Shown: piece after piece, positions 3,241 through 25,902 of the stretch | Layout: each line of letters opens with the position of its first letter | Position numbering within the stretch: position 1 is the stretch's first letter | IMG/VR virus record: IMGVR_UViG_3300032232_001064 | Location: 1 to 64,000 of that record | DNA: 64,000 nucleotides | Direction: 5' to 3' (one strand) | Source: a virus | Lineage: Duplodnaviria; Caudoviricetes | The notes under the pieces: generated by a model | Told to the model about the DNA's origin: nothing | The model's input: the letters and a program-made list of their open reading frames with translations, nothing else | The model's database searches: none | Translations under genes and position numbers: made by a program

Positions 3241-3432
3241 ATGTCTGTCTATAAAGCTTTTGTGGATGGGGCTGAGGTTTGGTCACAAACGGTTGACTTT
3301 TATCAGGGTGTTGTGCTTTTCCCAGATCAATACTTGCATCGACCTTCTAGTGGTGAAATCACGTTGATGTTCGACGACGAGACTATCTCCGTTTTGCGAC
3401 CACTAGAAGTTGATGAACCGATAGGAGAATAG
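3241..3432 (+). CDS. Hypothetical protein (63 aa)
   Basis: Operon-like spacing between neighbours. Confidence 0.5.
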   Translation: MSVYKAFVDGAEVWSQTVDFYQGVVLFPDQYLHRPSSGEITLMFDDETISVLRPLEVDEPIGE

Positions 3433-3438
3433 TTCTTT

Positions 3439-3819
3439 ATGACTCTTGGCTTTTCAACGGCTGCAAGAGCCGCGCGGATGAATGCTCTGGCGACACAGGC
3501 TGGATCAAACGCATGGTTGAGAATATACTCGGGGACGCGTCCAGCTACAGGAGGGACTGCGACCACGCTTCTGGTTGAACTGCAATGTACGACAACGCTT
3601 GCTCCCACGACCTCTACCGCCACGATAACACTAAACCCTTTTTCGACTGCTCTTATCTTAAATAGTGGAACAGCAACTTGGTTTAGGATTGCAACTTCGG
3701 CAAGTGTTGCCGTGATAGACGGCCAGTACGGTACAGACTTACAAGGATCAACGGCAACATTTGTTCAAGGTAGTCAGACCGCATTAACCTCATTCACGTT
3801 GACAGACGGCAATCCATAA
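3439..3819 (+). CDS. Small phage virion protein (126 aa)
   Basis: Pattern 'LRIYSGTRPA...GTATWFRI...VIDG..G.DL...SFTLTDGN' of a common phage structural family. Confidence 0.7.
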   Translation: MTLGFSTAARAARMNALATQAGSNAWLRIYSGTRPATGGTATTLLVELQCTTTLAPTTSTATITLNPFSTALILNSGTATWFRIATSASVAVIDGQYGTDLQGSTATFVQGSQTALTSFTLTDGNP

Positions 3820-3840
3820 AATCTAAAAAAGGATGCCAGT

Positions 3841-5967
3841 ATGGCCTATCCCACATTTGTAGCGGCTTCAGCGCTTAGATCGACAGGAAACGGCTCTACT
3901 CTCTCAGCAGCTTGGCCGACCCATCAAATAGGTGACCTAGCCTTTTTAGCAGTTGAACGAGACACAGGAACAACCTCTCTTTCGACAGCGAACGGTTTTG
4001 TGATTTTTGGATCACAGATAACCGCCACAGGAACAACCTTGACAGTTTTCTACTGTCGTGCCACTTCGGCTGCAATGCCTGCTCCTGTTATTGCTTCTGG
4101 AACCGATCACCTTGCTGCTGTCATGGTGACGTTCAGAAACGCTGCGCTTCCTAGAATCAGTGCTACCTCTACAAAGAACACAGCGTCAACTAGTTTGACG
4201 ATGCCGTCGATCACAACAGAGATTGCAACAAGTCTTGTTGTTGGGTTCGCATCTACTTCTTTAGACAATGCTGGCAGCTGGGTCAGCGCCATAACAAACG
4301 CGAACCTGACAAGCATCACTGAACGTTTCGACAACGGAACAAGTTCTGGTAACGGTGGCGGTCTTCTTGTCTGGACCGGACAAAAGGCTGTCGCTGGGTC
4401 AACAGGAACCACGGCCGTCACTGTAACTTCTTCGACAAATGCCATGCTGACTTTGGCTTTGGCTGAAAGATTGCCGGGTTACGCCGTTAGCTATAGCAGC
4501 GGCCTAGGAACCGCGCCAACAATCGGTCTGGCTGTAACCTGGGACAGAGATTTAGATAACACCGGGTCAGGCACAATTGTCCAGGTCATAAGTGGAAACG
4601 CCGCTTCAGGACAAGTAATTGTTCAACCTAATGACATCGGCATTGACGGATCGCCGTATGGCGCAGGTGCTTCGATCTTCAGTGCTGGACTGGCTTGGCA
4701 AGCTCAAGTCACAGCAGTCGCTACAGAAGGTGTTCTTGCGTACCGCAGCACAGACATTGATTCTTTTTTTCCGGTAGATACAACTACTTCTACTGGGTCT
4801 GTAACTGTTTCCGCGACAGGCGTGACCATTGATGGTCAGGTTGGTTCGGTTAGTTTAGCTGGAAACGCTAACCCTGTTTCTCGGCTTATAACGGCGCAGC
4901 CCGGGACCCTATCTGTTGATGGTGGATCTACCTCTTGCACTATTGTTCTAAATCTTTTTATATATGGTTCTACAGCTACATTAAATGCTGTAACTCGTAC
5001 TGTAAGTGCAGATGGGCAATATTTGATTGGAGGCATGGACGGTGGAGACACCTACAATGTCTCATTTACAACCGTAACGAACAATATCGGATACTTTCCA
5101 AAGGAAGGCGACGTTTTAACCTTTGCTTCCATTGAAAACACTGGACTGGGAACCATAGTTGAAGTCGTTTCTTACGATGGTGTAAGCGGCGTTTTGCACA
5201 TTGATCCACTGAATGACACGCAGTCCGAAGAATCGGTTTCTGGTGCAACGATTGTCGATTTTGGTGGGTCTGGAGGTTGGCTCGCCAACTGCATCGGCTC
5301 TGTATTAAGAAACCAAAGACTGCGTAATGGTGATGCTTTTTATGGTGGCTTAAATAGCCTTAAAGCTTACGTTGAAGTAGTCGGTGTAGAAGGAGCCATA
5401 GATCCTGGTCTCTCTGCAGTCCCACAGTTCTTTGAGTCGTCTGTTGCTGATCTCGATTTTTCATCTTTAACAGCAGAAATACTTGGAAACTACTTAATAG
5501 AAAAAGCTGATCCAGATGATTTTCTTATTGAGGGAATTTCTGGAAACGTCTTGGTTCCACAACCACAAACCATAGACGCTCAATCAAGTGAACTCAGCTT
5601 TGACTCACCAGGCGGTGTAGTTAGGCTCGACACAGCTATCTCAGCTCAACCTGCACAAATCGGATTGACTCCTATTCGCGGTCGATACAACTATCGAACC
5701 GCAGATATCTACACGCCGCCGATTCCTGGCTACACTACAGACGCAAAGGCCATGGTGATCCGCTGGTTTGTCAGAACCGGAACGTCTGATACTTTTACAG
5801 TCCAGCCTGGTGTAACACCATTAACTGCTCAAACATCCGTTGGAATGTCAATAGTTACAGCAGAAAGATTTGACAGTTCAAAGGGAGCGAATTCGCTGTC
5901 CGCCACGCCTTCAACTGAATCTGGAGACGCCGGAAATAACTACGGCTTCACCATAATTATTCAGTAG
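3841..5967 (+). CDS. Modular minor tail/fibre-like protein (708 aa) with internal duplication
   Basis: Ser/Thr-rich beta modules; duplicated segment LDNTGSGTIVQV / IENTGLGTIVEV. Confidence 0.65.
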   Translation: MAYPTFVAASALRSTGNGSTLSAAWPTHQIGDLAFLAVERDTGTTSLSTANGFVIFGSQITATGTTLTVFYCRATSAAMPAPVIASGTDHLAAVMVTFRNAALPRISATSTKNTASTSLTMPSITTEIATSLVVGFASTSLDNAGSWVSAITNANLTSITERFDNGTSSGNGGGLLVWTGQKAVAGSTGTTAVTVTSSTNAMLTLALAERLPGYAVSYSSGLGTAPTIGLAVTWDRDLDNTGSGTIVQVISGNAASGQVIVQPNDIGIDGSPYGAGASIFSAGLAWQAQVTAVATEGVLAYRSTDIDSFFPVDTTTSTGSVTVSATGVTIDGQVGSVSLAGNANPVSRLITAQPGTLSVDGGSTSCTIVLNLFIYGSTATLNAVTRTVSADGQYLIGGMDGGDTYNVSFTTVTNNIGYFPKEGDVLTFASIENTGLGTIVEVVSYDGVSGVLHIDPLNDTQSEESVSGATIVDFGGSGGWLANCIGSVLRNQRLRNGDAFYGGLNSLKAYVEVVGVEGAIDPGLSAVPQFFESSVADLDFSSLTAEILGNYLIEKADPDDFLIEGISGNVLVPQPQTIDAQSSELSFDSPGGVVRLDTAISAQPAQIGLTPIRGRYNYRTADIYTPPIPGYTTDAKAMVIRWFVRTGTSDTFTVQPGVTPLTAQTSVGMSIVTAERFDSSKGANSLSATPSTESGDAGNNYGFTIIIQ

Positions 5968-6637: not shown

Positions 6638-7738
6638 ATGGGTCGCATTCATCTTGTTGGGTTGCCGCATACACAGTTCGATGACGTAAACTTTTCATTC
6701 TGCGCATTCACAGCAAAGGCCGTGAGACTTGCGCGAATGCTTCGAGCTGCAGGACGCGAAGTTGTAGTCTACTGGGGCGGTGACATGGCCGATGTCTCGC
6801 TTCTTTCCGTCGAAGAACAGCAAAAATACTTCGGCACTTGGGAACCTAACCAATTGCCGTCGATTGAATGGAACGGAAAATTGCCATACTGGCAACAGTT
6901 TCACGTTCGCGCACTGGGCGCAATAAACGATCGACTAGACGGTGACGACATCATCGGTTTTATCGGCGGATCAATCTCTTATGAGCTAATTGACCGTTTC
7001 AAGCAGACCCATACAGTGATTGAACCAGGAGTTGGATATGAAGGTATCCACTTGGACACGTTCGCCTGTTATGAGTCATACGCTTGGATGCATAATCGCT
7101 ATGGCGCATATAACATCGGAGACGGTCGCGCGTTTGATACTGTGATTCCGAACGCTGTTGTTCCGGATGAGTGGGAAATGTCGGAATCGAAAGGATATGC
7201 GCTTTTCGTAGGGCGACTGATCTCACGAAAAGGCCCGCACGCTGCAGCCCGCATTGCGAATGAGTCTGGACTAAAGCTTCTTCTTGCTGGCGGTGGAGTC
7301 GCAAGCCAAGAGCCAGGGCGCATCGTGGCAACAGACGGCACAATTATTGAAGGTGATGTCGAGCATGTTGGTGCTGTTGTAGGAGACGCGCGGCGCAAAT
7401 TGTTTGCAGGCGCCGAAGTATTTATTTGTCCGACGCTCTACATCGGCCCGTGGGAAGGCGTGCACGCCGAGGCGATGATGTCAGGCGTCGGCGTTGCTGC
7501 ACCTGACTACGGCGTATTCACTGAAACATTGCCAGAGGTGAATCGGTATCGGTCGCTACGACAAGCGCTTGTCAGTGTTGAAAATGCAAGAGCGACACGA
7601 GGCGAGGAATGGCGTCAGCGCGCGATCGACATCTGTGGGACAGAAGTTTGCACAGCAAAATACGATAAGTGGATCGACCAGTTAGAATCTCTTCGCGGTG
7701 GCCGACTCGGCTGGTACGACCTTTCACCGTCTCGATAA
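6638..7738 (+). CDS. GT-B glycosyltransferase (GT4-like)
   Basis: 'LFVGRLISRKG', 'PTLYIGPWEGVHAEAMMSG..V...DYGVFTE' nucleotide-sugar-binding region. Confidence 0.85.
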   Translation: MGRIHLVGLPHTQFDDVNFSFCAFTAKAVRLARMLRAAGREVVVYWGGDMADVSLLSVEEQQKYFGTWEPNQLPSIEWNGKLPYWQQFHVRALGAINDRLDGDDIIGFIGGSISYELIDRFKQTHTVIEPGVGYEGIHLDTFACYESYAWMHNRYGAYNIGDGRAFDTVIPNAVVPDEWEMSESKGYALFVGRLISRKGPHAAARIANESGLKLLLAGGGVASQEPGRIVATDGTIIEGDVEHVGAVVGDARRKLFAGAEVFICPTLYIGPWEGVHAEAMMSGVGVAAPDYGVFTETLPEVNRYRSLRQALVSVENARATRGEEWRQRAIDICGTEVCTAKYDKWIDQLESLRGGRLGWYDLSPSR

Positions 7739-7780: not shown

Positions 7781-7933
7781 ATGAAAGACCTGCAGCTCGA
7801 CATCAACAACATTGTTAGCAGCTTGACTCGGCAGATCTCAGAACAAGCACAAAAGATCGCTGTTCTTGAGGCGACTGTCGACGCTCTCAACAACGAGCTC
7901 GACTCGATTGAACAGTCGACGGACGAAGATTAG
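7781..7933 (+). CDS. Small coiled-coil protein (50 aa; not in ORF track)
   Basis: ATG at 7781 after GGAGA; reads MKDLQLDINNIVSSLTRQISEQAQKIAVLEATVDALNNELDSIEQSTDED*, heptad pattern. Confidence 0.55.
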   Translation: MKDLQLDINNIVSSLTRQISEQAQKIAVLEATVDALNNELDSIEQSTDED

Positions 7934-8409
7934 TCTGGCTTTTTAGCCTTATTTTTAGCCTTGGCGCGCGCGGTGTGATACGCGGTAACGGCGTTCGCGC
8001 TTGTGCGACTTCTCCAAGTGAACTCGCATTCTTCGCACTTGACTAGCTTCATTGTCGCCCAGCGGCCACCTTCAGGCGTCGGTGCAATGACGACAACTAG
8101 CTTCGACGGTCGCGCGCCGCAGTACGGGCAATTTGGAAAGCGAGTTCGACGCACCTCTTTGCCGTCAAATGTGACCGACAGTGCGCGTCGTATCTCAGCT
8201 TCGTCCTTACCGCCCCAAACGCCCCAAAGTTCTTTGTTTTCCAGAGCGTACTTAAGACACTTGTCACGGACGGGACAAGAAAAGCACAGGTTGCGCGCGT
8301 CGTATTTTTCTCGCGGGACGCTTGAGAAAAACAGTGGAGCCATGTGTTTGTTTTCCGGCTGCGCGCAGGTACCGGACTCTTGCCACGAGTGATCTCTTAT
8401 TCCTGCCAC
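7930..8409 (-). CDS. whiB: WhiB-family Fe-S transcription factor with C-terminal zinc ribbon
   Basis: Four Cys (C-x-C..C-x5-C) plus 'WGVWGG' turn; extra CPYC...CEEC.F.W ribbon. Confidence 0.9.
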   Translation of the reverse strand: MAGIRDHSWQESGTCAQPENKHMAPLFFSSVPREKYDARNLCFSCPVRDKCLKYALENKELWGVWGGKDEAEIRRALSVTFDGKEVRRTRFPNCPYCGARPSKLVVVIAPTPEGGRWATMKLVKCEECEFTWRSRTSANAVTAYHTARAKAKNKAKKPD

Positions 8410-8844: not shown

Positions 8845-9351
8845 TTACGGGGCAAACCCGTCCTGATGCGGCCACACGTACTCGTAGGTTGCCGGCGCGG
8901 TGCCGCTGTCCTCGGCCCATCCGAACTGGCTGTACCAGTCGTAGTTTTTGCACAGCAACGCTGTCCGATGCGACGAACACAGCGTCTCGAAGTACGCTTT
9001 GTCAGTCATCCACGGCGGGAGAACCATTGCCGAGTCGATGCGGCCAAGCTGCACAGCAGTGTCGTAGGTATGCAAGATTTTTGGCAACATGGTCGACTTG
9101 TAGCCGCGCGACTTCCATTCGACGTACGTTGCTGCCATGTACGCGACAAACGCGGATTCGTAGCCTCGCCACATTCGAACGACAGGATGCGTCGTCCAGC
9201 CTTTTGGCGTCCGGTGATTTCCATCGGGATCTAGCTCGGTGATCGTCAGCAGACACTGCCACGCTTCGAGCGTTTGCTTGTGCAAGCGTTTGTTGTCGAG
9301 CACTGATGCTGTCTCGACAAACGAGTCGGTAGAGATGAGAAAAGACTGCAA
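8845..9351 (-). CDS. Pyrimidine-dimer DNA glycosylase/endonuclease V-like (MSMEG_6728-type) protein
   Basis: 'LDNKRLHKQTLEA.Q', 'HP...MWRGYE', 'SHRTALL.K..DWY' motifs; TTG start after AAGGAG. Confidence 0.8.
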   Translation of the reverse strand: MQSFLISTDSFVETASVLDNKRLHKQTLEAWQCLLTITELDPDGNHRTPKGWTTHPVVRMWRGYESAFVAYMAATYVEWKSRGYKSTMLPKILHTYDTAVQLGRIDSAMVLPPWMTDKAYFETLCSSHRTALLCKNYDWYSQFGWAEDSGTAPATYEYVWPHQDGFAP

Positions 9352-9391: not shown

Positions 9392-10639
9392 TTACTTAGT
9401 TTCAAAGTACGTTTTACGCACGAAGGATCGACTGAATCCTTTGTCCGTTTCAAGCAGGTACTCGCGATCGCCGATCAACTGTCCTTGTGGCCCGTTGGGT
9501 TGGCCGTCAAGTGCGGCAACAGTTGCCTCGCCGATCCACGTAGCGGCCTGCACAGCAACGGCCTTACCCCATGTCGCGCCGAGGGCGGAGTAGTTCTTTG
9601 CCTCGACAAATGACCAATCGTCAGGAAGTCCTTGAATTCTTGCAGCCTCACGATGCGTGATGCGGCGTGGTAGCGTCGGATGGACGATATGGTCCATGGC
9701 TCCACCGGTTAGCACGTGACAGAATGAATCAGCATCCCAGCGAACAGCTGTCGAGAATCCAAGATAGAAATCCTTTCTACGAACTTTCTCTTCTTGACTA
9801 AGCCATGACTGCGGGAACTTGTCGCCGTTCTTTTCGACAGCTTGCTTAAGCGCGCCGGCAAGATCGACCATCGGACCCCACCCGTCATTGCCGATGATCT
9901 CAAAGATCTCGTCAATTCGTCTGGTGTCCATGCTGATCTTGTTCATGTGGCCGTCGACGATACCCGTTTTAGTCCGAAGGCCGGCAACAAATGGACTAGG
10001 CTCTGACTGGCCATAGCTTTGCGGCTCCCACTGGACTTCGAGGTTCTCGAGGTCGCCGATGATGTCTCTCATTCGAGGAATCTCGGTGGGATTCGTCACT
10101 GATGCGCCAAACGGCATTCCTTGCTCGACAGCTACCCAAAAATAGCGCATCCGGTATGAGAATCCACCGACCTGCAGGTTGTTGTGCTTTACGTGGTACA
10201 GGTCATACTTCTTACCTGACAGTTCTTCAAGCATGTTGCGATATTGAAGCATCACGGCGCGACCTTGCGTATACGCCTGCTGCACACACTCGAACACTAC
10301 GATCTTTGGCTTTACGCGAGCTGCGTAGCGCATGAATGCGCGCGTGTGCTCGTGCGCAGCCGAGTCAGGTCCGCGCTTATCAGCGCCTGACCACACAGAC
10401 CAGCCAGAACATGGTGGACATCCGATGACAGCGTCTACGTTTGCTGTGGGCCAGTCGTTCGGATCGTCACCAAACGCGGCACTCCAGTTGTCGCCCAGAT
10501 GATGTCTGTTCAACTCGGCGACAGGGTTGCCAAAGTTCAATGTCCCAGTGCGGAGCTGCATCTCCATGCCGGACTTGACAAAGCCAAGACTCATGAACGC
10601 AGCTAGTCCATTGCAGTCGATAAATGTGTGATCGCTCAT
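9392..10639 (-). CDS. DNA cytosine-C5 methyltransferase homolog with degenerate SAM-binding motifs
   Basis: Motif IV GCPPCSG, VI FECVQ, VIII SYRMRYFW, IX ITHREAARIQGLPDDW and X WGKAV present; motif I is DCNGLAAF rather than DxFxGxGG. Start moved to ATG 10639 (GGAG upstream; aligns with MTase N-terminus). Confidence 0.85.
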   Translation of the reverse strand: MSDHTFIDCNGLAAFMSLGFVKSGMEMQLRTGTLNFGNPVAELNRHHLGDNWSAAFGDDPNDWPTANVDAVIGCPPCSGWSVWSGADKRGPDSAAHEHTRAFMRYAARVKPKIVVFECVQQAYTQGRAVMLQYRNMLEELSGKKYDLYHVKHNNLQVGGFSYRMRYFWVAVEQGMPFGASVTNPTEIPRMRDIIGDLENLEVQWEPQSYGQSEPSPFVAGLRTKTGIVDGHMNKISMDTRRIDEIFEIIGNDGWGPMVDLAGALKQAVEKNGDKFPQSWLSQEEKVRRKDFYLGFSTAVRWDADSFCHVLTGGAMDHIVHPTLPRRITHREAARIQGLPDDWSFVEAKNYSALGATWGKAVAVQAATWIGEATVAALDGQPNGPQGQLIGDREYLLETDKGFSRSFVRKTYFETK

Positions 10640-10671
10640 TGCGTGCTCCGTATGCGGACGATGATACTTAC

Positions 10672-10680
10672 AACCTATCA
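10672..10680 (-). promoter_or_regulatory. Extended -10 promoter candidate (TGATAGGTT)
   Basis: TGnTAnnnT in the gap upstream of the MTase homolog. Confidence 0.35.
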
Positions 10681-10697
10681 TGGCCCGGGGGAGAACA

Positions 10698-11009
10698 TTA
10701 CATGAGCAGGCTGTTTTCCTTGATACCGACCTCGTAGCCGCACGCGGCGTATCCCGCAATGTCTGTCCAAGTGTCTGGCTGGAATCCAGCGCCCGCGGCG
10801 TATCTAGCCATCTTCACTCCGACCATCGCCATCGCAACATCTTCACGTGAAAACTTGCGATCGAATAGCACTGTCCAGATCCTGGCGATCTTTTCGAAGT
10901 TGTCCTCTGGCCCGCCGTACTGCTCATCACGTTGGCCAGAGATGATACGTGCAACTTCGAGTAGCATTTCCTCACGCGCACTTTTCTTGCTGACGGCTGG
11001 CTTTGTCAT
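10698..11009 (-). CDS. DUF6378-like all-alpha (NTP-pyrophosphatase-like) protein
   Basis: 'R.EQYG.PEDNF..IA..W...DVAM.M..VKMAR...DTW.DIAGYAA' pattern. Confidence 0.75.
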   Translation of the reverse strand: MTKPAVSKKSAREEMLLEVARIISGQRDEQYGGPEDNFEKIARIWTVLFDRKFSREDVAMAMVGVKMARYAAGAGFQPDTWTDIAGYAACGYEVGIKENSLLM

Positions 11010-11442: not shown

Positions 11443-11684
11443 AGTTCTGCTACTTTCTTTTCAAGCCGGTACGGAGCATGTCGCGCACCGGATACGTAGG
11501 GAAGTCTTAGGTCAATTGTCGTGACGTGTACATCGCCGTCTTTTACGTCGATCACTCGGACAAGCCGCCCGTTGTGTATCTTTCCGGCCGCGGTTTTATA
11601 AGCATCGAACTTTACGCGGAGAACGTCACCGGTTTTAAGGTCACTGGCCGAAACATCAGCCCACAAGGAGTTCACAGCGCTCAT
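11439..11684 (-). CDS. Hypothetical SH3/Tudor-like small protein
   Basis: 'LKTGDVLRV...GRLVRVIDVKDGDVHV'; start at ATGA overlap with the upstream gene. Confidence 0.55.
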   Translation of the reverse strand: MSAVNSLWADVSASDLKTGDVLRVKFDAYKTAAGKIHNGRLVRVIDVKDGDVHVTTIDLRLPYVSGARHAPYRLEKKVAEL

Positions 11685-12154
11685 CGCTGAGGACACTGCA
11701 CTTCAGTGCACGCTGACGTGTCATAGTCGTCGAGAGCCCGAGCGCACTGTGCGCACTTCATTCCTGTATCAAGAACTCGGTATCCCTTTTTCTGTCGATC
11801 AGCGTTGAGCTGCATCTTGTTCAAGTATGCGAGGTCAAGTTCGTCGTCTGTTGCGCCAGCTGCGCACAGAATGTTCGCGACAAAGTGCAGAACATCGACG
11901 CATTCTTTGAGGATTTCACGACGATCGGCGTACGGGTCGTCGTGCTGCCACGGCTTCCAAGAAATTGCCTTACGCACCTCGGCAAGTTCGTCGTCAATGG
12001 CAAGCATGTTCCAACGAATATACTCGATGAGTGCGCGAAGATTTTCTGGTTCGTCGCTGTGAAAGACTGTGTAATCGACTCCGTAGGCTGTTTGCTGCAA
12101 CTTTCGCGTAGCGTCTAGCCACTTGTGAAACAGGTAGTTGTTTGTCTCGCTCAA
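11681..12154 (-). CDS. Dimeric dUTPase/dCTPase-like (MazG superfamily) pyrophosphatase with C-terminal Cys cluster
   Basis: 'DELAE.....WKPW.....EILKECVDVLHF.AN' motif; 'N..RQ..GY' end; C-terminal CxxC..C..C. Confidence 0.8.
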   Translation of the reverse strand: MSETNNYLFHKWLDATRKLQQTAYGVDYTVFHSDEPENLRALIEYIRWNMLAIDDELAEVRKAISWKPWQHDDPYADRREILKECVDVLHFVANILCAAGATDDELDLAYLNKMQLNADRQKKGYRVLDTGMKCAQCARALDDYDTSACTEVQCPQR

Positions 12155-13161
12155 AACCCTAGCTCCTTGATCAATGCTTCGACAGAGTCATCGACCTTAG
12201 GCGTCGATGATAGAAAATCTTTTCGTTGCGCCATGGCGATCTCGAACCTGTCGATCTGTGACATGTCCTCGATGGTTGACGGTAAGCACGTCCATGATTC
12301 GCCAAGCCAGCTCGCCGACCGCCAGTCGGTCGCTACGACAGTGCCGGTGTTTACAGCTTGGATCATGCGAGGATTCCACCATAAAAGCCCTCCGTCGCTC
12401 GGAGCAATCATAACACCAGAGCACGTCAAAAGCCGTGCCTCAATGGCGTCATCAATCTCACCTTTGTGTTCTTTGGCCGGCATCCAATTCCAAGTGAGCC
12501 CGTGTTTCACAGTCTCGAACCACTTTGACTTCGGCGTGTCGACGCACCAGAATGGACTTCTACCTCCTGGCAAAAAGCCACCGCCGACCTTGACTAACGC
12601 GGCGTCGACGTTGATAGCAACCACGGACGACGGGTCAGCATCAATACGTCTAGCGACATCAGTGTTGCTTACGCCAACAGACGCCGGAAAGATTGTTCGC
12701 GGCGTCCAACCAGTAAGCATTCGCGCGGCTGTCCAGTCGAGTCGCGCGCGTAGCTCGGTATCATCGAGAACGGCGCCATAGCCCTTTCTAGCGCGGTAGA
12801 GAGGCTTGACAAGATTGTCTGGCACACGATTTATCGCGCGAAAACTGGCCGGGATTTTGTCTGGGTCCGGTGCGTCAATCAGTAGCCGCAACTTCTCGCT
12901 ATAGAAAAGAGAGTCTATTACGCTAAGTGCACCGTAGGCGTTGTTTGCACTAAGACTCAGGACTGGCGATACTCCAACAATGACAGAGTCGTACTCGTCG
13001 AATTCCGTAGCGTCTTTTGCAATCCACGGTTCACGATGATCGACTTCAATGTCTGCTTTTTGAAGTAACTTGGCGACAGCACCAGAGAATGTAGCATTCC
13101 TCTTTGCCAAACGTGCAGATGTCTGAGGAGCTGCCATTCCGGTGATAAGAACTTTTTTCAT
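12151..13161 (-). CDS. GT-B glycosyltransferase-like protein resembling T4 beta-glucosyltransferase
   Basis: N-terminal 'KVLITGM', 'EFDEYDSVIV', 'LLIDAP', C-terminal 'WWNPRMIQAVNTGTVVATD', read by eye as parallel to T4 BGT motifs. Confidence 0.6.
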   Translation of the reverse strand: MKKVLITGMAAPQTSARLAKRNATFSGAVAKLLQKADIEVDHREPWIAKDATEFDEYDSVIVGVSPVLSLSANNAYGALSVIDSLFYSEKLRLLIDAPDPDKIPASFRAINRVPDNLVKPLYRARKGYGAVLDDTELRARLDWTAARMLTGWTPRTIFPASVGVSNTDVARRIDADPSSVVAINVDAALVKVGGGFLPGGRSPFWCVDTPKSKWFETVKHGLTWNWMPAKEHKGEIDDAIEARLLTCSGVMIAPSDGGLLWWNPRMIQAVNTGTVVATDWRSASWLGESWTCLPSTIEDMSQIDRFEIAMAQRKDFLSSTPKVDDSVEALIKELGF

Positions 13162-13901
13162 TACGCGTTGTCATTCTGTTGTTGGATATAGACAGACGGG
13201 ATTCCTACATCAAATGCCTCAACGTCAAACAGTGACGTGTCGACGCTCATGATTTGGTCAAGGTGCGGACCGATCTTAATTTCTGCACCGTCATTTGTGA
13301 TGTGACTATTCAGAAACGCGCGAGAAAGCACACTCGAGGCGACCTCAGTGTCGAATACGAGTGGTCCGCACCAGACTACAGATTCGCGAGTGAGTGGCCA
13401 GACATCTTCTTGGTTGATTTCAACGCCTTCAACGTATGAGTACAGTCCGCTAGGACGCAGCCTGACTCTCGTGAACCTAGCTGCCTTGTCAAGCTCGACA
13501 TACCTGATCCCGACGGCGTCACAGTCCGTTCTTCTTACAGTGTCGGCCATTTCTACAATGGTGTCGGTATTCATGATGTTGTCGCTCATCAAAAGCATCG
13601 TCTTTTTCGAAAGAACTTGTTCAATCCCGAGCATCGCTGCATGGCCAGGGCCAAATGGATGCTCTTGAACTATGGTCGAAACCCAGGGACCGTATTCTGC
13701 AGTGATCTGCTCAATGTCGTCGGCGTTGCTCGGCGAAACAACAATGGTCACATGGTCTACTTGCGCGGCGTCAGCGTATTGAATTGCGTATTTCAGTAGC
13801 GGAATGCCGTTCAATTCAAGAAGTGGCTTAAAGAATGGCTTTGCTAGTCCTTCCATCCGTTGACCACGACCTGCCGCAAGTATTACTGCTTCCAATGCCA
13901 T
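13161..13901 (-). CDS. Sugar-phosphate nucleotidyltransferase (NTP_transferase)
   Basis: 'VILAAGRGQRM...KPLLELNGIPLL', 'QEHP.GPGHA', 'MSDN' motifs. Confidence 0.85.
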   Translation of the reverse strand: MALEAVILAAGRGQRMEGLAKPFFKPLLELNGIPLLKYAIQYADAAQVDHVTIVVSPSNADDIEQITAEYGPWVSTIVQEHPFGPGHAAMLGIEQVLSKKTMLLMSDNIMNTDTIVEMADTVRRTDCDAVGIRYVELDKAARFTRVRLRPSGLYSYVEGVEINQEDVWPLTRESVVWCGPLVFDTEVASSVLSRAFLNSHITNDGAEIKIGPHLDQIMSVDTSLFDVEAFDVGIPSVYIQQQNDNA

Positions 13902-14401
13902 TCCTGCTTTGCCCAGATAAAGTCCCAGCCTGCAAGCATTGCAGGCCTGTGACCCTCGATCCTGTCGTCGACGTACGTTCCAGTGTCGCTGATGTTTTGC
14001 ATGATCATGAGCCGGTCGTCTGTCGAGATGCTCGACGCGAGTAGCGCATGGTGGTCTAATCCCAGTTCCGACAGGATGGTCTTAGCGACCTCCTGGGTTG
14101 CACCAGTCACATAAAAGACCTGAGTGTCGTTGCGCTGTTCGAGCGCGGCCATGATCTGCGCGAAAGGAAGAGCATTTCGCTTGACTGCGCCGCTCTTCAG
14201 TACCTTTACGTACTCGCGTGTCTTTGTCGCATGGAGTTGCTCAGCGAGTTCATACGAGCCAACCGCACCTGGCAGCCACGTGTTCCACGGATGACCCCAA
14301 GCTTCGAGCGGCATGTCAACGCCGATGTGCTTGTACGATTCGCGCACAAGTTCACGTGAGTCAATGAGAACGCCGTCAATGTCTGAACACCAATACTTCA
14401 T
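13883..14401 (-). CDS. HAD-superfamily phosphatase
   Basis: Motif I 'DIDGVL', motif II 'VTG', motif IV 'YVDD'. Confidence 0.85.
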   Translation of the reverse strand: MKYWCSDIDGVLIDSRELVRESYKHIGVDMPLEAWGHPWNTWLPGAVGSYELAEQLHATKTREYVKVLKSGAVKRNALPFAQIMAALEQRNDTQVFYVTGATQEVAKTILSELGLDHHALLASSISTDDRLMIMQNISDTGTYVDDRIEGHRPAMLAGWDFIWAKQEWHWKQ

Positions 14402-14403
14402 TT

Positions 14404-15171
14404 TTATCTCCGTTCAATCGCTCTATCGAGAACAGAAAGCACAGATTTTACCGAGTTCGGCATGTTCTGAATGACGTATGGAAGAGCACGAACCACGTGG
14501 ATAGTCGCCCACGCTTCGCCGACTGCGAAAAGCTCATCATCGGCTATCGCCTTTTTGAGATCTCGCCTTGTAAAGGCTGAAAAACCGGTTGCGTACTTGG
14601 CGTGCTCCCAACCGCACGCGCTTTGCAGCATTTTTCCGATGTCGACAGCCGGTGAATCCGGGACTACCTCAGTTGCTTGGATTGGATCAATGAGAACTTT
14701 ACCAAAGCCTGGTCTGTACATCACGTTTTCAGCTGTCGGATCGCCGTGCGTCAATGCGTGGTGCATCTCAAATGCGCCGGCGGCTGCTGTCTCTGCGTCA
14801 CTCAGTATCTGACTTTTTGTTGTGTCTGAAATTATACCACTTAGCCACGTATCTATCGTGATCTGCATCTTCTCGAGAAGTAGACCAAGAGTCGACTGTG
14901 TAGGTGGTGCGACCGGAGGTTGAATCCAAACGTAGCTACGAAGCATCTCGACCATCTCGCTCGGATCAACTTCCCAGTAGTCGATGAACTCTAGCTTTTC
15001 CATGATGTATCCATCGGAAAGAAGAGCATAGACATGGGGAAACATTGAACCGACGCTATGTATGACGATCCACTCGCCCTGCGCGCGCGTTCTTGCGCCG
15101 TCGCCGCCTTGCTTGGTGACGGTGTGTCCGTCGCCGTTATTGGTGACTACCGCGCCGGACAATCCTCTCAT
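14404..15171 (-). CDS. APH/choline-kinase-like small-molecule kinase
   Basis: Brenner motif 'HGDPTAENV', 'LIDP', 'DIGKMLQS'. Confidence 0.85.
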   Translation of the reverse strand: MRGLSGAVVTNNGDGHTVTKQGGDGARTRAQGEWIVIHSVGSMFPHVYALLSDGYIMEKLEFIDYWEVDPSEMVEMLRSYVWIQPPVAPPTQSTLGLLLEKMQITIDTWLSGIISDTTKSQILSDAETAAAGAFEMHHALTHGDPTAENVMYRPGFGKVLIDPIQATEVVPDSPAVDIGKMLQSACGWEHAKYATGFSAFTRRDLKKAIADDELFAVGEAWATIHVVRALPYVIQNMPNSVKSVLSVLDRAIERR

Positions 15172-16409
15172 GAGAACGCACTCTCGATCATCACCTCAGC
15201 GGTCTTTCGAGGATCGTTTCTTGTGCGAAGAACTTCGCGGTTGTGCTGCGCGATTGCGATGTGGTCAGCTTCTGGGATTTCAAGGCATGTCTGAAATGCG
15301 TCAGCGCACTTCTTGATTACCTCTATTCCTTCGTCTTTTACAAGACGACCCTGCGTCGGGGAACCTTTATACCAGTCGAGCACCATCATACGGAACTGAG
15401 AATCTGAAAGGTGGCCGGGCACGATACAGAGTGCGCCGGCATCTGCGGCCTCAAGCGTCGAGTATTCGACAAGCCCGCGCGCGAAATTGTGCGCGGTCAA
15501 ATTCATGTGAACGCGGAACCGCTGAGCGATCTTTGACGAATCAACATAGTTCCCGAGGTACCGAACAAGCGCGTGACCTTCGACACGCGCATCCCACGGA
15601 TACGGCGTGATGATATTGCCGTCGGTTCGTTCAGTCTCTGTATCGAGATTCTTGTGATAACGAAGCACCTTCGCGCCAAAGTGTTCTCTAAGAAGTTCAT
15701 AGACGATGAACGTCGGCGACGGGCCAAGTCCGACAGAGCATGATCCCCAGACCTCAACGGTGACGTCTGGGTCTAGGAACACGCCGGTCATAGCGACAAC
15801 AGGCTGCCCCTTGTTGTAGATAAACCGGCCTGACGTGCCAACGATCTTTTCGCGCTGGACCGGGGCGTCGATCTCGAACTTCGGGATATAGGGCATAGGA
15901 CCCTTAATCCAATCGACAGCCTTGAAAATGTCATTGCTATAGAGCGCAGAATCTTCGCTCATCGTGACAAGCTTGGTCCCACGCGATGGCGACTCAAGAA
16001 GCTTCGCAACGAACGGCACATCTTTGTCCGGGTAGAACGAACCGTGCAGCGACGTTGTCCACGGGGTCTTGGTCCGTAGGAGCGCGTCGACGTACTCAGG
16101 CAACGCGCCGCCACCTGCCTTTATCGCGGTCTTGTCGTGAAGCGGGATCTTAATTTCTGGAAGTACAACCATGTCATAGGTGTCAAGGCATTGAACAATG
16201 TCGACTGTTTTGACTGTGACGTCGGGAGCTTCACTCCACCACCGTCCACCAGGCTGTGGCTTTCCCCACGACGAACGCGCACGACCACTCTTCGTGTACG
16301 ACACGACATCTGCTTCGTGACCAAGTGCCTTGAATCCGTAACGCAGACGAAACGCCCACGCCGTCGGTCCCTTTACTCCAGGCTCTGGCTCAAGAATAGC
16401 GACTTTCAT
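15168..16409 (-). CDS. GT-B glycosyltransferase resembling T4 alpha-glucosyltransferase
   Basis: N-terminal 'GPT.WA..LR..F...GHEADVV' and C-terminal 'VEYSTLEAADAGALC', matching by eye T4 AGT 'G.T.F......GHEV' and 'LEY..LE..ACG'. Confidence 0.7.
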   Translation of the reverse strand: MKVAILEPEPGVKGPTAWAFRLRYGFKALGHEADVVSYTKSGRARSSWGKPQPGGRWWSEAPDVTVKTVDIVQCLDTYDMVVLPEIKIPLHDKTAIKAGGGALPEYVDALLRTKTPWTTSLHGSFYPDKDVPFVAKLLESPSRGTKLVTMSEDSALYSNDIFKAVDWIKGPMPYIPKFEIDAPVQREKIVGTSGRFIYNKGQPVVAMTGVFLDPDVTVEVWGSCSVGLGPSPTFIVYELLREHFGAKVLRYHKNLDTETERTDGNIITPYPWDARVEGHALVRYLGNYVDSSKIAQRFRVHMNLTAHNFARGLVEYSTLEAADAGALCIVPGHLSDSQFRMMVLDWYKGSPTQGRLVKDEGIEVIKKCADAFQTCLEIPEADHIAIAQHNREVLRTRNDPRKTAEVMIESAFS

Positions 16410-21239: not shown

Positions 21240-21556
21240 ACCACCCTAGCTACTCCAGCTCGAACGAGCATGCTCTCACACTTCTTGCATGGCTTTGACG
21301 GTGCTGGTTCGCCGTCCGCGCCAACTCTCGCAATGTAGACGTGCGCGCCGGTCGCACGCGAACCGGCAGCAATGATAGCGCCAAATTCCGCGTGGATGTG
21401 CGACACACGCCAAGCGGTGCTTGGGTCACCGACCTTCTTATTTGTCGCCATCGCGATGATACGACCGTTCTTGGCGACGACACATCCATGACGATGTCTA
21501 CACTTGCTCTTAGCTGCAAGCTGCAGCGCCTTTGTCATGTACTTACTTACCGCCAT
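21230..21556 (-). CDS. Small zinc-dependent cytidine/dCMP deaminase-like protein
   Basis: 'HAE' and 'SKPCKKC'; start placed at ATG overlapping polymerase TGA. Confidence 0.8.
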   Translation of the reverse strand: MAVSKYMTKALQLAAKSKCRHRHGCVVAKNGRIIAMATNKKVGDPSTAWRVSHIHAEFGAIIAAGSRATGAHVYIARVGADGEPAPSKPCKKCESMLVRAGVARVVWT

Positions 21557-23379
21557 CAGTATTTGTCTCCCCACGTCTCAAGCGGACCGTCGACGTCAGC
21601 AGTTAGCGGCACAGCCCAACCTTCACGCGTTGTCATGCATTCACGAACAACTTGCATGATCTCGCGGGCGTCCTTGCGCGGCGCCTGTAGCACGATTTCG
21701 TCGTGCACTGGAACGATCAGCATCTCAGTCAGATCTGCTTGGTCGAGCTTTACGAGGTTCGCCTTGAAAACCTCCGCGGCACCACCTTGAATGAGATAGT
21801 TGACAAGCGTGTACACGCGACCTTCGTCGCAAGGAAGTCGCCGACCTGTCCAAGTATAGACGTAGCCTTGGCCTTCCTCGCGAACACGACGCATCCCAAT
21901 GTCTTCAATCTGTCGCTGGAAGTACGCCATTCCAGGGAATCGACGATCAAACTCGTCTGACGTGTGCTTCATTGCGGATTCGTGGACGCCGGCGGTAAGC
22001 GCCTGTTTCGCAACGCCGGCACCGTAAAGACGGCCATAGATCATGCTCTTGATAAGGCCACGGCGCTTATCGGATTTCTGCATGTCTGGCTCGCTGTACA
22101 CTTCACGGCCGATCTCGGTGAACGGATCAGAGCCGGTGCTATCTGCGACGTTGAACAGCGAGATCAGGTTTTCGTCGTTAGAGAGACTCGCAAACATTCT
22201 GAACTCGACCTGGTCAAGGTCAGAGGTGATGATGACGTGATCGTCGTCCTTCGGAATGAAGGCACGACGAACCGTTGCGTCACCCTTTGGCAGTGTTTGA
22301 AGCGCCGGGTTCGTAATCGACATGCGACTTGTTCGAGCGCCGAGCGTCTTTACAGACGGATGCACAAAGCCGTCAACAGATTCAGTCAAGAAGTTGCTGA
22401 AGTACGTGTTCGCAAGCTTGTCAGCCTTGCGCTGCTTAAGAACAGTGTCGGCAAGTGTCTTGACTTCGTCGTTGCCGTCGCGAAGAAGAATCTTCAGCTG
22501 ATCTTTAGTGCATGACTTTTGCCCAGTCGGCGTTGTTTCCGTAATCTCTGCACCAAGGCGCTCGAAAAGCCGAACGAGCTGGACGTTGCTCGTGATCGAC
22601 ACACCTTCATACTTTTGCTTGGCCCACGTCTTTACGCTATTAGTGTATGCGCTCAGCTCATCATACTTCTGGCGTGAGTAGCCAAGGTCAACGCGTGCGC
22701 CGTTGATTTCCATGCGTGTGACGATTCGCCGCGCGGCCATTTCCAGCTCGTACGGACGGCTATACGCGCCGCTAGGGCCGCACTTGTCCCAGAACATTTC
22801 CCACAGTCTGGTCGTCAGCACGCAGTCGAGAGCGCCATATGACCAGTACGGTTGAAAGTTTGTCGGAACTGTTCCCCACGTCCAACCGTTCTTTACGAGC
22901 TCGGTATCGAGCGTCTCTTGAAGAGCCACAGCGCGACTATCGACGTGCAACGCCGCAAGACGCTTTAGCGCGCCGGAACCAAGAGGATCTACGACATGCG
23001 CCATGATCATTGTGTCATGCGCTCTATGCCACGGAATATCCCACCGAGACTGGACATCGAACCATCGCGCCTCAAAGGCGATGTTGTGGCAGATCAACGG
23101 ACCATCGAACTTGTTCATGGCCTCATAGAACACACCTGACCATTCGTCCCACGGAATCGACCAGCCCTGCTCACCGTCACCGACTTGCACAAGTCGAAGC
23201 CGGCCGTGCCATGGAGAAAACGCATGGTCTCGAGGGTTGCCGGGCAGTTCTCCGGTTTCAGTGTCGACAGCCAGCGCGTTGTGCGGCCGTCTTTGCCCAA
23301 TCCAGTGGATGAACTCCGCAGCCTTTTCGACATTGTCGACCAGATGAAGCTGGACGTTGGAAAGATCAGTCGTTGTCAT
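21556..23379 (-). CDS. polA: Family A DNA polymerase (3'-5' exonuclease + polymerase, no 5'-3' exo)
   Basis: Exo 'AVDTETG', 'HNIAFE', 'Y..LD'; motif A 'SDLDQVEFR', motif B 'RGLIKSMIYG', motif C 'VHDEI'. Start moved to ATG 23379. Confidence 0.95.
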   Translation of the reverse strand: MTTTDLSNVQLHLVDNVEKAAEFIHWIGQRRPHNALAVDTETGELPGNPRDHAFSPWHGRLRLVQVGDGEQGWSIPWDEWSGVFYEAMNKFDGPLICHNIAFEARWFDVQSRWDIPWHRAHDTMIMAHVVDPLGSGALKRLAALHVDSRAVALQETLDTELVKNGWTWGTVPTNFQPYWSYGALDCVLTTRLWEMFWDKCGPSGAYSRPYELEMAARRIVTRMEINGARVDLGYSRQKYDELSAYTNSVKTWAKQKYEGVSITSNVQLVRLFERLGAEITETTPTGQKSCTKDQLKILLRDGNDEVKTLADTVLKQRKADKLANTYFSNFLTESVDGFVHPSVKTLGARTSRMSITNPALQTLPKGDATVRRAFIPKDDDHVIITSDLDQVEFRMFASLSNDENLISLFNVADSTGSDPFTEIGREVYSEPDMQKSDKRRGLIKSMIYGRLYGAGVAKQALTAGVHESAMKHTSDEFDRRFPGMAYFQRQIEDIGMRRVREEGQGYVYTWTGRRLPCDEGRVYTLVNYLIQGGAAEVFKANLVKLDQADLTEMLIVPVHDEIVLQAPRKDAREIMQVVRECMTTREGWAVPLTADVDGPLETWGDKY

Positions 23380-23875
23380 TGTTGTCGTCCCTATCCCAGA
23401 AAATAGTGTAGTCGATGCCAGTCTCTTTGAGATACGCAAACACTAGTTCAGGTCGTCTATGAGCGTCATTCTCACTCGCGCGGCAGACGACACGGCGTAT
23501 TCCAGAGTTGCTGATGAGCTTGGCGCACTGCATGCAAGGAACGCCAGTGACGTACAACGTACCACCATCGATGCTCGATCGGTCGACATACAGCAAAGCG
23601 TTCGCCTCCGCGTGGATGGCGGGGCACAGGTCATACGTGTTGTCGAGTGTCCCCTCGCCTCTCGCTCGAGGGCACCACCCAGAACACATGCCGTCGTGAG
23701 GCCACGAAGCAGCAGGCCCGTTGTAGCCTGTTGCTGCGATCCGCTGGTTTCCTGAAACGATGACGGCGCCGATTCGGGCGCGAGAGCAGCGTGACTTTTT
23801 TGCTACGACGTCAGCTACAGCTATCCAGGTATCGTCCCACGAAGGAATGTCATCATTCGTCGTCTTCTGTGTCAT
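23366..23875 (-). CDS. dCMP deaminase (ComEB/DCD type)
   Basis: 'C.R..IGAVIV...TGYNG', 'HAEANA', 'PCMQCAK.I'. Confidence 0.9.
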   Translation of the reverse strand: MTQKTTNDDIPSWDDTWIAVADVVAKKSRCSRARIGAVIVSGNQRIAATGYNGPAASWPHDGMCSGWCPRARGEGTLDNTYDLCPAIHAEANALLYVDRSSIDGGTLYVTGVPCMQCAKLISNSGIRRVVCRASENDAHRRPELVFAYLKETGIDYTIFWDRDDNNDND

Positions 23876-24053
23876 ATTGTTCCTCGTCCGACACCTCGTT
23901 CATTCCCATGACGAGCATTCTCGCTACGAGTTCCAGGGCGTCTCTTCGTGTAAATCCGGCTCGGCGCAGTGTCACATACATCTCATGCATGCTGATTGCC
24001 GCCTCTTCCATCGGCGATGCGTACTCGTAATCGTCATCGCCGTTGTTGCTCAT
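23853..24053 (-). CDS. Hypothetical protein (66 aa)
   Basis: 'HE.Y..L..AGFTR..AL.L' small phage helical protein. Confidence 0.65.
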   Translation of the reverse strand: MSNNGDDDYEYASPMEEAAISMHEMYVTLRRAGFTRRDALELVARMLVMGMNEVSDEEQYDTEDDE

Positions 24054-24913
24054 GTCGCGTTCTTTTGACTGTTCTTATAGAACGCAGAGATCATCGAATC
24101 TGCGTACCAAGCTTCGGCATTGCCAAGAGACTCGTACGCTCTTTGCGAGTAGACAGCTGCAAGTGCGGTCTGCGCCATAGTCTTAATATTATCCCACGAT
24201 GAACCAACGATCGGTGGAGGCGGTGACACAATCTCAGTCTTTTGAAGCTGCGTCGCCGCTTCGAAATTCGTCTCGTAGATGTGAAGCGAACCGACGTGGT
24301 GAGCATACTGACCAGGCTCAATCCCGAGGACACTGGCCATTGCGATCTGCACTCGCGTGAACTGAAAGAAATCATACGCGGCGCCAAGCCACACGTCGTT
24401 CGACCGCATGTACACGCTCATGTTGAGCTTTCCATTGCGTATCCGAAACTGATGCATGACGGTGCACGGGTAGTCTCGCTTATGCGGAGTGTTGTCCTTA
24501 GACGGATCCCAAAGCGTGACGACCGCCTGCCGCGAATCAGTGTCATTTTTGAGCTTTTCGATCACAGCTTCATACTGTCCGCTGGTTCGCGTACCGTACG
24601 ACCCGTGAAACTTGCCGTCTTCTTCTGCGTAGTTCTTAAACTGCGGACCGATCGCGATCACGGTTTCCGGTACCGCAACTCCGCCGAGAAGTTGGCACGC
24701 TTCGACGGCACCAATGCCTGCGACCGGGTTGCGCTTGACGCCGACGGGCAATGTCGCAAAGACGTTGTCGATGTAGACAACCGCGTCTTCAATCTCAAGA
24801 GTGCCGAGCCCTCGAGGAGCTACTCGGTCGCCGTAGATAAGGACATGGTTGACAAGATCAACATAGCCGTTGACGCCGTCTTCGATTTCAATGGACTTTA
24901 TGGAAGCTCCCAA
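24050..24913 (-). CDS. Thymidylate-synthase-fold enzyme with Asp specificity residue (probable dCMP hydroxymethylase/methylase)
   Basis: 'DSRQAV', catalytic 'PCT', 'MRSNDVWLGAAYDFFQF', 'SLHIY'. Confidence 0.85.
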   Translation of the reverse strand: MGASIKSIEIEDGVNGYVDLVNHVLIYGDRVAPRGLGTLEIEDAVVYIDNVFATLPVGVKRNPVAGIGAVEACQLLGGVAVPETVIAIGPQFKNYAEEDGKFHGSYGTRTSGQYEAVIEKLKNDTDSRQAVVTLWDPSKDNTPHKRDYPCTVMHQFRIRNGKLNMSVYMRSNDVWLGAAYDFFQFTRVQIAMASVLGIEPGQYAHHVGSLHIYETNFEAATQLQKTEIVSPPPPIVGSSWDNIKTMAQTALAAVYSQRAYESLGNAEAWYADSMISAFYKNSQKNAT

Positions 24914-25902
24914 TGCGCAAACCTTTCACTGTGAATCTTGTCGTTGAGTGCGAAACTTTCAATCGCTAGACCGTACTCGAACTTATCTCGATGATGAAAG
25001 CGTCGTACGTATTGCGGATGAGGCAGCACGCTATAGCCGTGAGCATGCAGTCCACACGAACGAACTTCTCGCTCGGCCATCCGACCAAGAGCGACGATTT
25101 GTGGACAGCCTAGCGCACCCCACAGCTCTACGAGACGCGCGTCATGAACGTCGCCTGCATTGACAATTCCAACGCTGCGCCACAGACTTTCGGGAAGCGC
25201 GCTCAAAAGAAAGTCGCCAGAGTTTCCGTCAACTGGCATAAATGGAAGGCATGTTACCGACGGGTCATTTCGCTTGTCGCCGACAAGAAGAACTGTAGGC
25301 ATTGCAGATCCGATGTATTCAGGAAATTGAGCAAGAGGCTTCGTAAACTCTGAAACGATCGACGCCACGTGAACAATGTCGGCGGCAAGTGCGCTGAGGT
25401 TGTCTAGTCCTTCTGGTGGAACTACCTCTTGTGCGTTGAATGAACTCATTGTCGCGGCTGACTCGTATCTTGAGAGAATCCCACGAAGGTCTGACGATGA
25501 CACAAAGTCGTCACCGCGAGACGCCAACCTACTCACGATAACATCAAGCGGCTGATGAACCCAGAACTGTGCCACACCACGTGACGCAAGAAACAGCTCT
25601 ACCCAACGCCAACCTGCGACCCCGAGCAGGCCATAGCCGTCTTTGTTTGTTTCTGGCCGCTTTGTCGGCGCGTATGTAATCTCGCCCCAGTGCCACCTAT
25701 CGGCGATCGCGTCCTCGCGCCACGTGTCGAGGTTTTCAATCGAGATGGCGTACTCAGTGAGCGCCCAACGCCTCGTAAGCTCGTCAGGGCGTCCTTTATG
25801 GAACTCTAGAACCTTACTCGACGACGCGTCGAGCAGCTTCTTGATCTCAAGAGCAAGCGAGGACTTACCAGATGCGTCGGTACCCTCAAGTACAATGAAC
25901 AT
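24898..25902 (-). CDS. dNMP (thymidylate-kinase-like) kinase fused to a uracil-DNA-glycosylase-like domain
   Basis: P-loop 'EGTDASGKSS', 'DRWHWGE..Y'; C-terminal 'LVGD','PF....SG.FL','IVALG..A','HPQYVRRF'. Confidence 0.8.
   Translation of the reverse strand: MFIVLEGTDASGKSSLALEIKKLLDASSSKVLEFHKGRPDELTRRWALTEYAISIENLDTWREDAIADRWHWGEITYAPTKRPETNKDGYGLLGVAGWRWVELFLASRGVAQFWVHQPLDVIVSRLASRGDDFVSSSDLRGILSRYESAATMSSFNAQEVVPPEGLDNLSALAADIVHVASIVSEFTKPLAQFPEYIGSAMPTVLLVGDKRNDPSVTCLPFMPVDGNSGDFLLSALPESLWRSVGIVNAGDVHDARLVELWGALGCPQIVALGRMAEREVRSCGLHAHGYSVLPHPQYVRRFHHRDKFEYGLAIESFALNDKIHSERFAHWELP

Follow-up and report, generated by a model that had tools for sequence, protein, structure and literature searches.

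The locus considered here raises the question whether a phage gene of the thymidylate synthase (TS) family makes thymidylate (dTMP) at all, or whether it acts on deoxycytidine monophosphate (dCMP) in place of deoxyuridine monophosphate (dUMP). The gene (positions 24050-24913, minus strand) lies in a stretch of 64,000 nucleotides (nt) that belongs to an uncultured actinophage of freshwater and was taken from IMG/VR virus record IMGVR_UViG_3300032232_001064 (Caudoviricetes; positions 1 to 64,000 of that record, hereafter the window). An earlier note on this DNA had singled it out for an aspartate at the place of Asn177 of E. coli ThyA, proposing that the enzyme makes 5-hydroxymethyl-dCMP (5hm-dCMP), 5-methyl-dCMP (5m-dCMP) or another 5-substituted dCMP. 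In our analysis the gene product is, with a probability of about 0.8, a dCMP hydroxymethylase and the functional equivalent of gp42 of phage T4, as judged from sequence comparison. We strongly infer that its product would be 5hm-dCMP, and not 5m-dCMP, 5-hydroxy-dCMP (5ho-dCMP) or dTMP, and the enzyme most likely starts a pathway by which cytosine is replaced in the phage DNA.

The open reading frame (ORF) is intact, starts with TTG, is preceded at 8 nt by a Shine-Dalgarno-like stretch (GAAAGG), and its first 16 nt are also the last 16 of the upstream kinase gene. The same overlap arrangement, with ATG as start codon, is present in the closest database relative, Actinomycetia phage DSL-LC01. 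The encoded protein of 287 amino acids (aa) belongs to the Pfam family Thymidylat_synt (PF00303, E 2.9e-25); its top sequence match in the PDB is the CMP 5-hydroxymethylase MilA (E 1.5e-19), which outranks all true thymidylate synthases. When the protein is aligned with the E. coli ThyA and T4 gp42 sequences of annotated records, Cys150 comes to lie opposite the catalytic Cys146 of E. coli, and the other core residues are likewise intact (R34, E71, Y106, R128, R170, S171, D173, H211 and Y213). The aspartate reported by the earlier note is indeed there: Asp181, in the motif RSNDVWLGAAYDFFQF, shares a column with Asn177 of ThyA (RSCDVFLGLPFNIASY) and with Asp179 of T4 gp42, a residue to which the note had also referred. 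The tryptophans W80 and W83 of ThyA are replaced by Phe and Tyr, and the C-terminal extension past the H-x-Y motif comprises 74 residues, compared with 28 in T4 gp42.

Five diagnostic positions (L143, H147, Q165, D169 and N177 of E. coli ThyA) were read from a MAFFT L-INS-i alignment with reference enzymes from annotated phage records: the dTMP synthases E. coli ThyA and RB69 td; the verified dUMP hydroxymethylases SPO1-type gp29, M6, ViI and phiW-14; the dCMP hydroxymethylase T4 gp42; and the 5ho-dCMP synthase RB69 gp48 (Table 1). The residues of MilA were read only from the portion aligned in the PDB search. The window protein agrees with T4 gp42 at all five positions. Across nine characterised enzymes there is no exception to the pairing of Asp177 with cytosine and of Asn177 with uracil, Asp being present in T4 gp42, RB69 gp48 and MilA, all of which act on cytosine, and in none of the six uracil-acting enzymes compared.

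Table 1. Residues at five diagnostic positions, in E. coli ThyA numbering
Enzyme	L143	H147	Q165	D169	N177
ThyA (E. coli, RB69 td)	L	H	Q	D	N
dUMP hydroxymethylases (4)	D	N	N or Q	D	N
T4 gp42	D	T	M	D	D
RB69 gp48	E	T	M	N	D
Window protein	D	T	M	D	D
MilA (aligned core)	D	T	M	D	D

Published work assigns functions to several of these residues. The exchange of substrate preference by an Asn/Asp swap, on which the earlier note relied, is borne out by the N177D substitution, which gives preference for dCMP (PMC13326640); in T4, Asp179 specifies and protonates the cytosine, and its replacement by Asn lowers kcat about 3600-fold (PMC6400193). Positions 147 and 177 are also the two best separators of cytosine-modified from unmodified phage contigs (PMC8670742). 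As to the product, acidity at L143 is correlated with the formation of a hydroxymethyl instead of a methyl group (PMC13326640), and in the ternary complex of the T4 enzyme the corresponding Asp145, three residues ahead of Cys148, activates the water molecule that is added to the exocyclic methylene; the D145N mutant has no activity, and steric hindrance prevents hydride transfer (PMC6400193). The presence of Asp147 in the window protein thus argues against a methyl product. The substitution D169N is diagnostic of the flavin-dependent 5ho-dCMP synthases (PMC13326640), and the retention of the equivalent D173, in the window protein as in 150 of 150 representative homologs, argues against a 5-hydroxy product. 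Finally, MilA owes its preference for ribo-CMP to Ala176 and Lys133, and the A176S/K133R double mutant is switched to dCMP (PMC5175136); the window protein carries the deoxy-type pair, Ser171 and Arg128. The signature, read with these residue rules, predicts dCMP as substrate and 5hm-dCMP as product. Every sequence test supports a dCMP-directed enzyme, and D147 and D173 narrow the earlier list of candidate products to one.

The signature is not confined to the window. A search of 5.8 billion proteins returned 670 relatives at E < 1e-10, and Asp181 is present in each of the 120 best of these (62-95% identity), many of which are encoded on phage contigs of 100-145 kb. When 1.84 billion cluster representatives (50%-identity clusters) were scanned exhaustively with HMMER, 447 matched at E < 1e-30; in the nearest 150 representatives (35-64% identity) D177, T147, M165 and D169 are invariant, and D143 is found in 146. 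An aspartate kept in 120/120 and 150/150 sequences is no matter of chance, and the residue is fixed across a large clade. The tree of the 150 representatives and the reference enzymes (FastTree, LG+gamma, rooted on ThyA; MilA left out) shows a long branch between ThyA and all the hydroxymethylase-like enzymes. Those of the Asp type are united in one clade (SH support 0.87) that contains the window protein, its counterparts in DSL-LC01, Gordonia phage Sixama and Pseudoxanthomonas phage PW916, T4 gp42, RB69 gp48 and all representatives, and that is sister to the four Asn-type dUMP hydroxymethylases. Internal support in the tree is weak, and no order of events is claimed from it.

Annotation as thyA, against which the earlier note had warned, would be at odds with these data, since the protein lies in the Asp-type clade and its best score against eight NCBIfam ThyA equivalog models (78.8 bits) is below every one of their cut-offs (108.35 to 576 bits). 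The homologs in DSL-LC01 and in Gordonia phages are nonetheless labelled "thymidylate synthase" in GenBank and JGI, probably wrongly. The complete genomes of DSL-LC01 (129 kb) and Sixama (115 kb) hold no second TS and no ThyX, and the record from which the window was taken (72.9 kb, about 50% complete) has a single TS homolog and no ThyX. The PW916 homolog (positions 3280-4098 of that genome) carries the full cytosine-type signature D/T/M/D/D despite the label "dUMP hydroxymethyltransferase"; we considered it as a counter-example to the Asn/Asp rule and rejected it as such, the label being an annotation made without experiment. In tblastn its closest relatives are found in Stenotrophomonas phage AXL3 and in the Pelagibacter phages HTVC200P and HTVC119P; these are annotated as thymidylate synthases and may be mis-annotated dCMP hydroxymethylases too. 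A search of the literature on 5-hydroxymethylcytosine (5hmC) or hydroxymethylases together with Gordonia phages, actinobacteriophages or actinophages returned no report of modified cytosine or DNA chemistry for this lineage, and the paper on DSL-LC01 does not discuss the gene.

Compared with known enzymes, the window protein has most in common with T4 gp42 (EC 2.1.2.8; PDB 1B5E family): the TS fold, the catalytic Cys followed by Thr, the equivalents of Glu58 and Tyr94, the R-S-N-D motif, Met at Q165, and D147 and D181 as equivalents of Asp145 and Asp179. The genomic partners are also those of T4, namely a gp56-like pyrophosphatase, a deoxynucleoside monophosphate (dNMP) kinase, a dCMP deaminase and a glycosyltransferase resembling the T4 alpha-glucosyltransferase (AGT). 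The two phages differ in that the sugar pathway of the window is phage-encoded and in their hosts, an enterobacterium for T4 and an actinobacterium for the window phage, as indicated by its WhiB gene. MilA (PDB 5B6D/5JNH), which belongs to the mildiomycin biosynthesis cluster of Streptomyces, shares the D/T/M/D/D signature in the aligned core, but the window gene is part of a phage replication module. The dUMP hydroxymethylases of phages containing 5-hydroxymethyluracil (hmU), i.e. SPO1 gp29 and those of SP-10, M6, ViI and phiW-14, are the sister clade and share the acidic residue at L143, the HG[A/S]YG motif and similar deaminase and kinase neighbours, yet have Asn at both 177 and 147 where the window protein has Asp and Thr. 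RB69 gp48 and DLP3 gp80 agree with it at 177, 147 and 165 and in the acidic residue at 143, but not in their D169N; their pathway goes on to DNA glycosylation from a phage-made nucleoside diphosphate (NDP) sugar (PMC13326640). With E. coli ThyA and T4 td (EC 2.1.1.45), the protein has in common the fold, the Pfam family, the nucleophile and the phosphate-binding arginines, whereas N177, L143, H147, Q165, W80 and W83 are all replaced.

From the observed fold, residue pattern, clade and gene context a pathway can be proposed, in which the substrate, the product and all later steps are predictions. Cys150 would attack C6 of dCMP, while Asp181 would bind and protonate the cytosine at N3/N4 and thereby select cytosine over uracil; methylene-tetrahydrofolate would give one carbon to C5, and the exocyclic methylene, to which true thymidylate synthases transfer a hydride, would instead be hydrated by a water activated by Asp147 to yield 5hm-dCMP. 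The kinase encoded by the overlapping gene would then phosphorylate 5hm-dCMP, the phage DNA polymerase (PolA) would incorporate the modified nucleotide, the gp56-like pyrophosphatase would drain the dCTP pool, and 5hmC on the DNA would probably be decorated by the AGT-like glycosyltransferase with a phage-made NDP-sugar. By analogy, this gene set fits the scheme of T4, with dCTPase, hydroxymethylase, kinase, polymerase and DNA glycosyltransferase, and with a deaminase as in T4 cd. Cytosine-modified contigs typically encode TS homologs together with dCMP deaminase and MazG-like pyrophosphatases (PMC8670742).

The predicted hydroxymethylase gene lies within a long replication operon on the minus strand (Table 2). 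The protein encoded by the overlapping upstream gene was modelled with AlphaFold2 (AF2; pLDDT 94), and VIA-align divides the model into two domains. The kinase domain matches YorR (2axp, Z 18.2) and dTMP kinase (1g3u, Z 14.6); the second has the fold of a family-4/UdgX-type uracil-DNA glycosylase (UDG), with UdgX (6ail, Z 11.6) and UDG (1l9g, Z 11.3) as matches, and is seen only with VIA-align, as Foldseek returned kinase matches alone. More than 100 homologs, 330-340 aa in length, keep the fusion; Sixama has a 198-aa kinase alone. The first motif of the UDG-fold domain is non-canonical (GDKRN), HPQYVRR replaces the HPS motif, and a further match (Z 10.3) is to the UDG-like domain in 9qhs, the structure of a family-A polymerase of a phage with a modified template. 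Downstream of the hydroxymethylase gene follow those for dCMP deaminase, PolA, a second small deaminase, a RuvC-like protein, a SNF2 helicase, a PD-(D/E)XK nuclease and a RecA-like ATPase. The order kinase-TS homolog-deaminase is kept in DSL-LC01, with the deaminase gene adjoining there as well; in Sixama the kinase and TS homolog genes are adjacent and the deaminase gene is found further downstream. Two small genes, one of deaminase fold between those for PolA and the RuvC-like protein, the other very acidic and between the hydroxymethylase and dCMP deaminase genes, are unannotated at the matching places in DSL-LC01, where the flanking genes abut.

Table 2. Features of the window referred to in the text, in order of position
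Feature	Position	Strand	Evidence
Collagen-repeat protein	3-1205	+	Pfam Collagen E 6.4e-22
GT1-family glycosyltransferase	6638-7738	+	
WhiB-like regulator	7930-8409		
T4 endonuclease V-type pyrimidine-dimer DNA glycosylase	8845-9351	-	Pfam Pyr_excise E 1.9e-14
C5 cytosine DNA methylase homolog	9392-10759	-	Pfam E 4.3e-21
T4 gp56-like all-alpha NTP pyrophosphatase, candidate dCTPase/dUTPase	11681-12154	-	Pfam dUTPase_2 E 1.4e-11; BLASTP
Sugar-activation trio (next three genes)	13161-15171	-	
Sugar-1-phosphate nucleotidyltransferase	13161-13901	-	Pfam NTP_transf_3 E 6e-16; NCBIfam rmlA-like matches
HAD hydrolase/mutase-like protein	13883-14401	-	Pfam Hydrolase E 1.2e-4
APH-like kinase (weak match)	14404-15171	-	Pfam APH E 5.7e-4
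GT-B glycosyltransferase, 413 aa, candidate DNA hmC glycosyltransferase	15168-16409	-	AF2 model, pLDDT 91.5; Foldseek
Deaminase-fold protein, 114 aa	21230-21574	-	
Family A DNA polymerase	21556-23439	-	Pfam DNA_pol_A E 7.1e-55
dCMP deaminase, 169 aa	23366-23875	-	Pfam dCMP_cyt_deam_1 E 3.7e-20; phrog_174 E 5.5e-44
Very acidic ORF, 66 aa	23853-24053	-	
Predicted dCMP hydroxymethylase, TS fold, 287 aa	24050-24913	-	Pfam PF00303, PDB match, signature, tree
Motif RSNDVWLGAAYDFFQF with R170, S171, D173 and putative cytosine-specifying Asp181 (codon 24371-24373)	24359-24406	-	Translation, alignments, 270 homologs
Motif RDYPCT with putative water-activating Asp147 (E. coli L143, T4 D145), catalytic Cys150 and Thr151 (E. 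coli H147)	24461-24478	-	Translation, signature table
dNMP kinase (residues 1-189) with UDG-fold domain (residues about 189-326), 334 aa; predicted hm-dCMP kinase	24898-25902	-	phrog_761, AF2 model, VIA-align
Giant ORF, >4195 aa, running off the window	51412-63999	-	

The candidate dCTPase/dUTPase is 27% identical to T4 gp56 (BLASTP, E 1e-11) and has homologs in both DSL-LC01 and Sixama. The model of the GT-B glycosyltransferase retrieves T4 AGT (1y6g/1xv5; Foldseek E about 1e-10, TM about 0.6) among its top matches, beside generic GT4 enzymes. No homolog of this glycosyltransferase was found in DSL-LC01, Sixama or PW916; the sugar-transfer step is thus not conserved together with the hydroxymethylase, and the decoration of the DNA probably varies between phages. 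The ORF at 12151-13161 was tried as a relative of the T4 beta-glucosyltransferase and rejected for lack of similarity (BLASTP E 0.57); it has no sequence relative in the PDB.

Several points weigh against the assignment as a dCMP hydroxymethylase. Identity to T4 gp42 is about 27%, the contig is about 50% complete, and the rule that connects L143 with the product is correlative, the references compared here being dTMP synthases, hydroxymethylases and one 5ho-dCMP synthase; RB69 gp48 moreover shows that unexpected chemistry is possible on the TS fold. A C5 cytosine DNA methylase homolog in the same operon would be odd or redundant if cytosine were fully replaced. Lastly, the second half of the T4 hydroxymethylation signature is Ser94, two residues ahead of Tyr96 (PMC6400193), and the window protein has Gly104 at this place, followed by Ser105 and Tyr106 (H-G-S-Y-G). 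The verified hydroxymethylases of M6, ViI and phiW-14 read H/R-G-A-Y-G, also with Gly at the Ser94 position, and SPO1-type gp29 reads N-A-P-Y-G. As verified dUMP hydroxymethylases do without this serine, Ser94 is a T-even feature and no requirement. From its sequence, the window enzyme looks like an hmU-type scaffold (HGSYG) bearing cytosine-type specificity residues, a hybrid signature which suggests that the T4 Ser94 criterion is not general.

The missing serine would also suit a dCMP methyltransferase of the kind reported for Xanthomonas phage XP12, which would form 5m-dCMP by hydride transfer from the folate and lead to DNA with 5-methylcytosine instead of 5hmC. The kinase and deaminase neighbours fit such an enzyme equally well, and N177D/N229D mutants of ThyA are dCMP methylases that likewise operate through Asp at 177 (cited in PMC8670742). 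However, methyl-forming enzymes have a bulky hydrophobic residue where the window protein has Asp147, and the D145N mutant of the T4 enzyme is inactive; the W80/W83 pair, which shields the active site of ThyA from solvent, is lost; the local HG[A/S]YG motif is that of verified hydroxymethylases; and the AGT-like glycosyltransferase and NDP-sugar genes presuppose a base with a hydroxyl group as acceptor. We consider a methyltransferase very unlikely. Slightly less credence still is given to two other outcomes, even when taken together: a flavin-dependent 5ho-dCMP synthase like RB69 gp48, a family recognised only in 2026 (PMC13326640), and a hydroxymethylase whose hm-dCMP is deaminated by the neighbouring enzyme to hm-dUMP, so that thymine is replaced. 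RB69 gp48 does share D177, T147 and M165 and groups with T4 gp42 in the same clade, and the operon has two deaminase genes; against this stand the absence of D169N, already discussed, the gp56-like pyrophosphatase and T4-like gene set, which fit the replacement of cytosine, and the lack of anything specific to hmU.

Least probable of all, in our view, is that the public annotations are right or nearly so, the enzyme acting, as a true thymidylate synthase or as a dUMP hydroxymethylase, on dUMP made by the adjacent dCMP deaminase. Its membership of the Pfam TS family, the names given to its homologs, including that in PW916, and the same logic of deaminase, TS homolog and kinase in SPO1-type hmU phages all speak for this, as does the dUMP-producing deaminase in the operon; yet the pair of TS homolog and dCMP deaminase is just what cytosine-modified phage contigs typically carry (PMC8670742), and T4 has both. 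All six uracil-acting enzymes combine Asn177 with His or Asn at 147, whereas the window protein and 270 homologs have Asp and Thr; the loss of activity in T4 D179N, the scores below the ThyA equivalog cut-offs and the lack of an experiment behind the PW916 label tell against it as well.

If the assignment as a dCMP hydroxymethylase is true, 5hmC, probably glycosylated, takes the place of cytosine in a widespread group of freshwater actinobacterial phages and in several cultured Gordonia phages, and their DNA would behave differently towards host restriction and CRISPR defences, with effects also on sequencing and library chemistries and on metagenomic abundance estimates. A systematic annotation error would be corrected, as the name "thymidylate synthase" implies synthesis of dTMP, of which these phages are probably incapable, and the rules linking residues to substrate and product in the TS superfamily would gain a divergent data point. 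The clade in question comprises hundreds of freshwater actinophage contigs and the cultured Gordonia phages Sixama, GodonK and GMA2, all labelled thymidylate synthase. It is a tentative suggestion, possible more than probable, that this clade represents the first cytosine-replacing hypermodification system in phages of Actinobacteria, with 5hmC carrying an undescribed sugar supplied by the phage kinase/HAD/nucleotidyltransferase trio and with a hybrid active site of hmU scaffold and T4-like cytosine specificity. The Asn/Asp rule has been known since 1992 and is textbook knowledge, and work on metagenomes in 2021 showed how prevalent Asp-type TS homologs are among phages, uncultured ones included. 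No new mechanism is proposed here, and the novelty is modest: a large clade of freshwater actinophages that has cultured relatives among the Gordonia phages, and the hybrid signature.

Other features of the window are listed for completeness. The gene for a T4 endonuclease V-type pyrimidine-dimer DNA glycosylase adjoins that of the WhiB-like regulator. A block on the plus strand, apart from the DNA-metabolism operon, encodes a collagen-repeat protein and a GT1-family glycosyltransferase, which may serve the glycosylation of the virion rather than of the DNA, and a giant minus-strand ORF is situated upstream of the head and tail genes.

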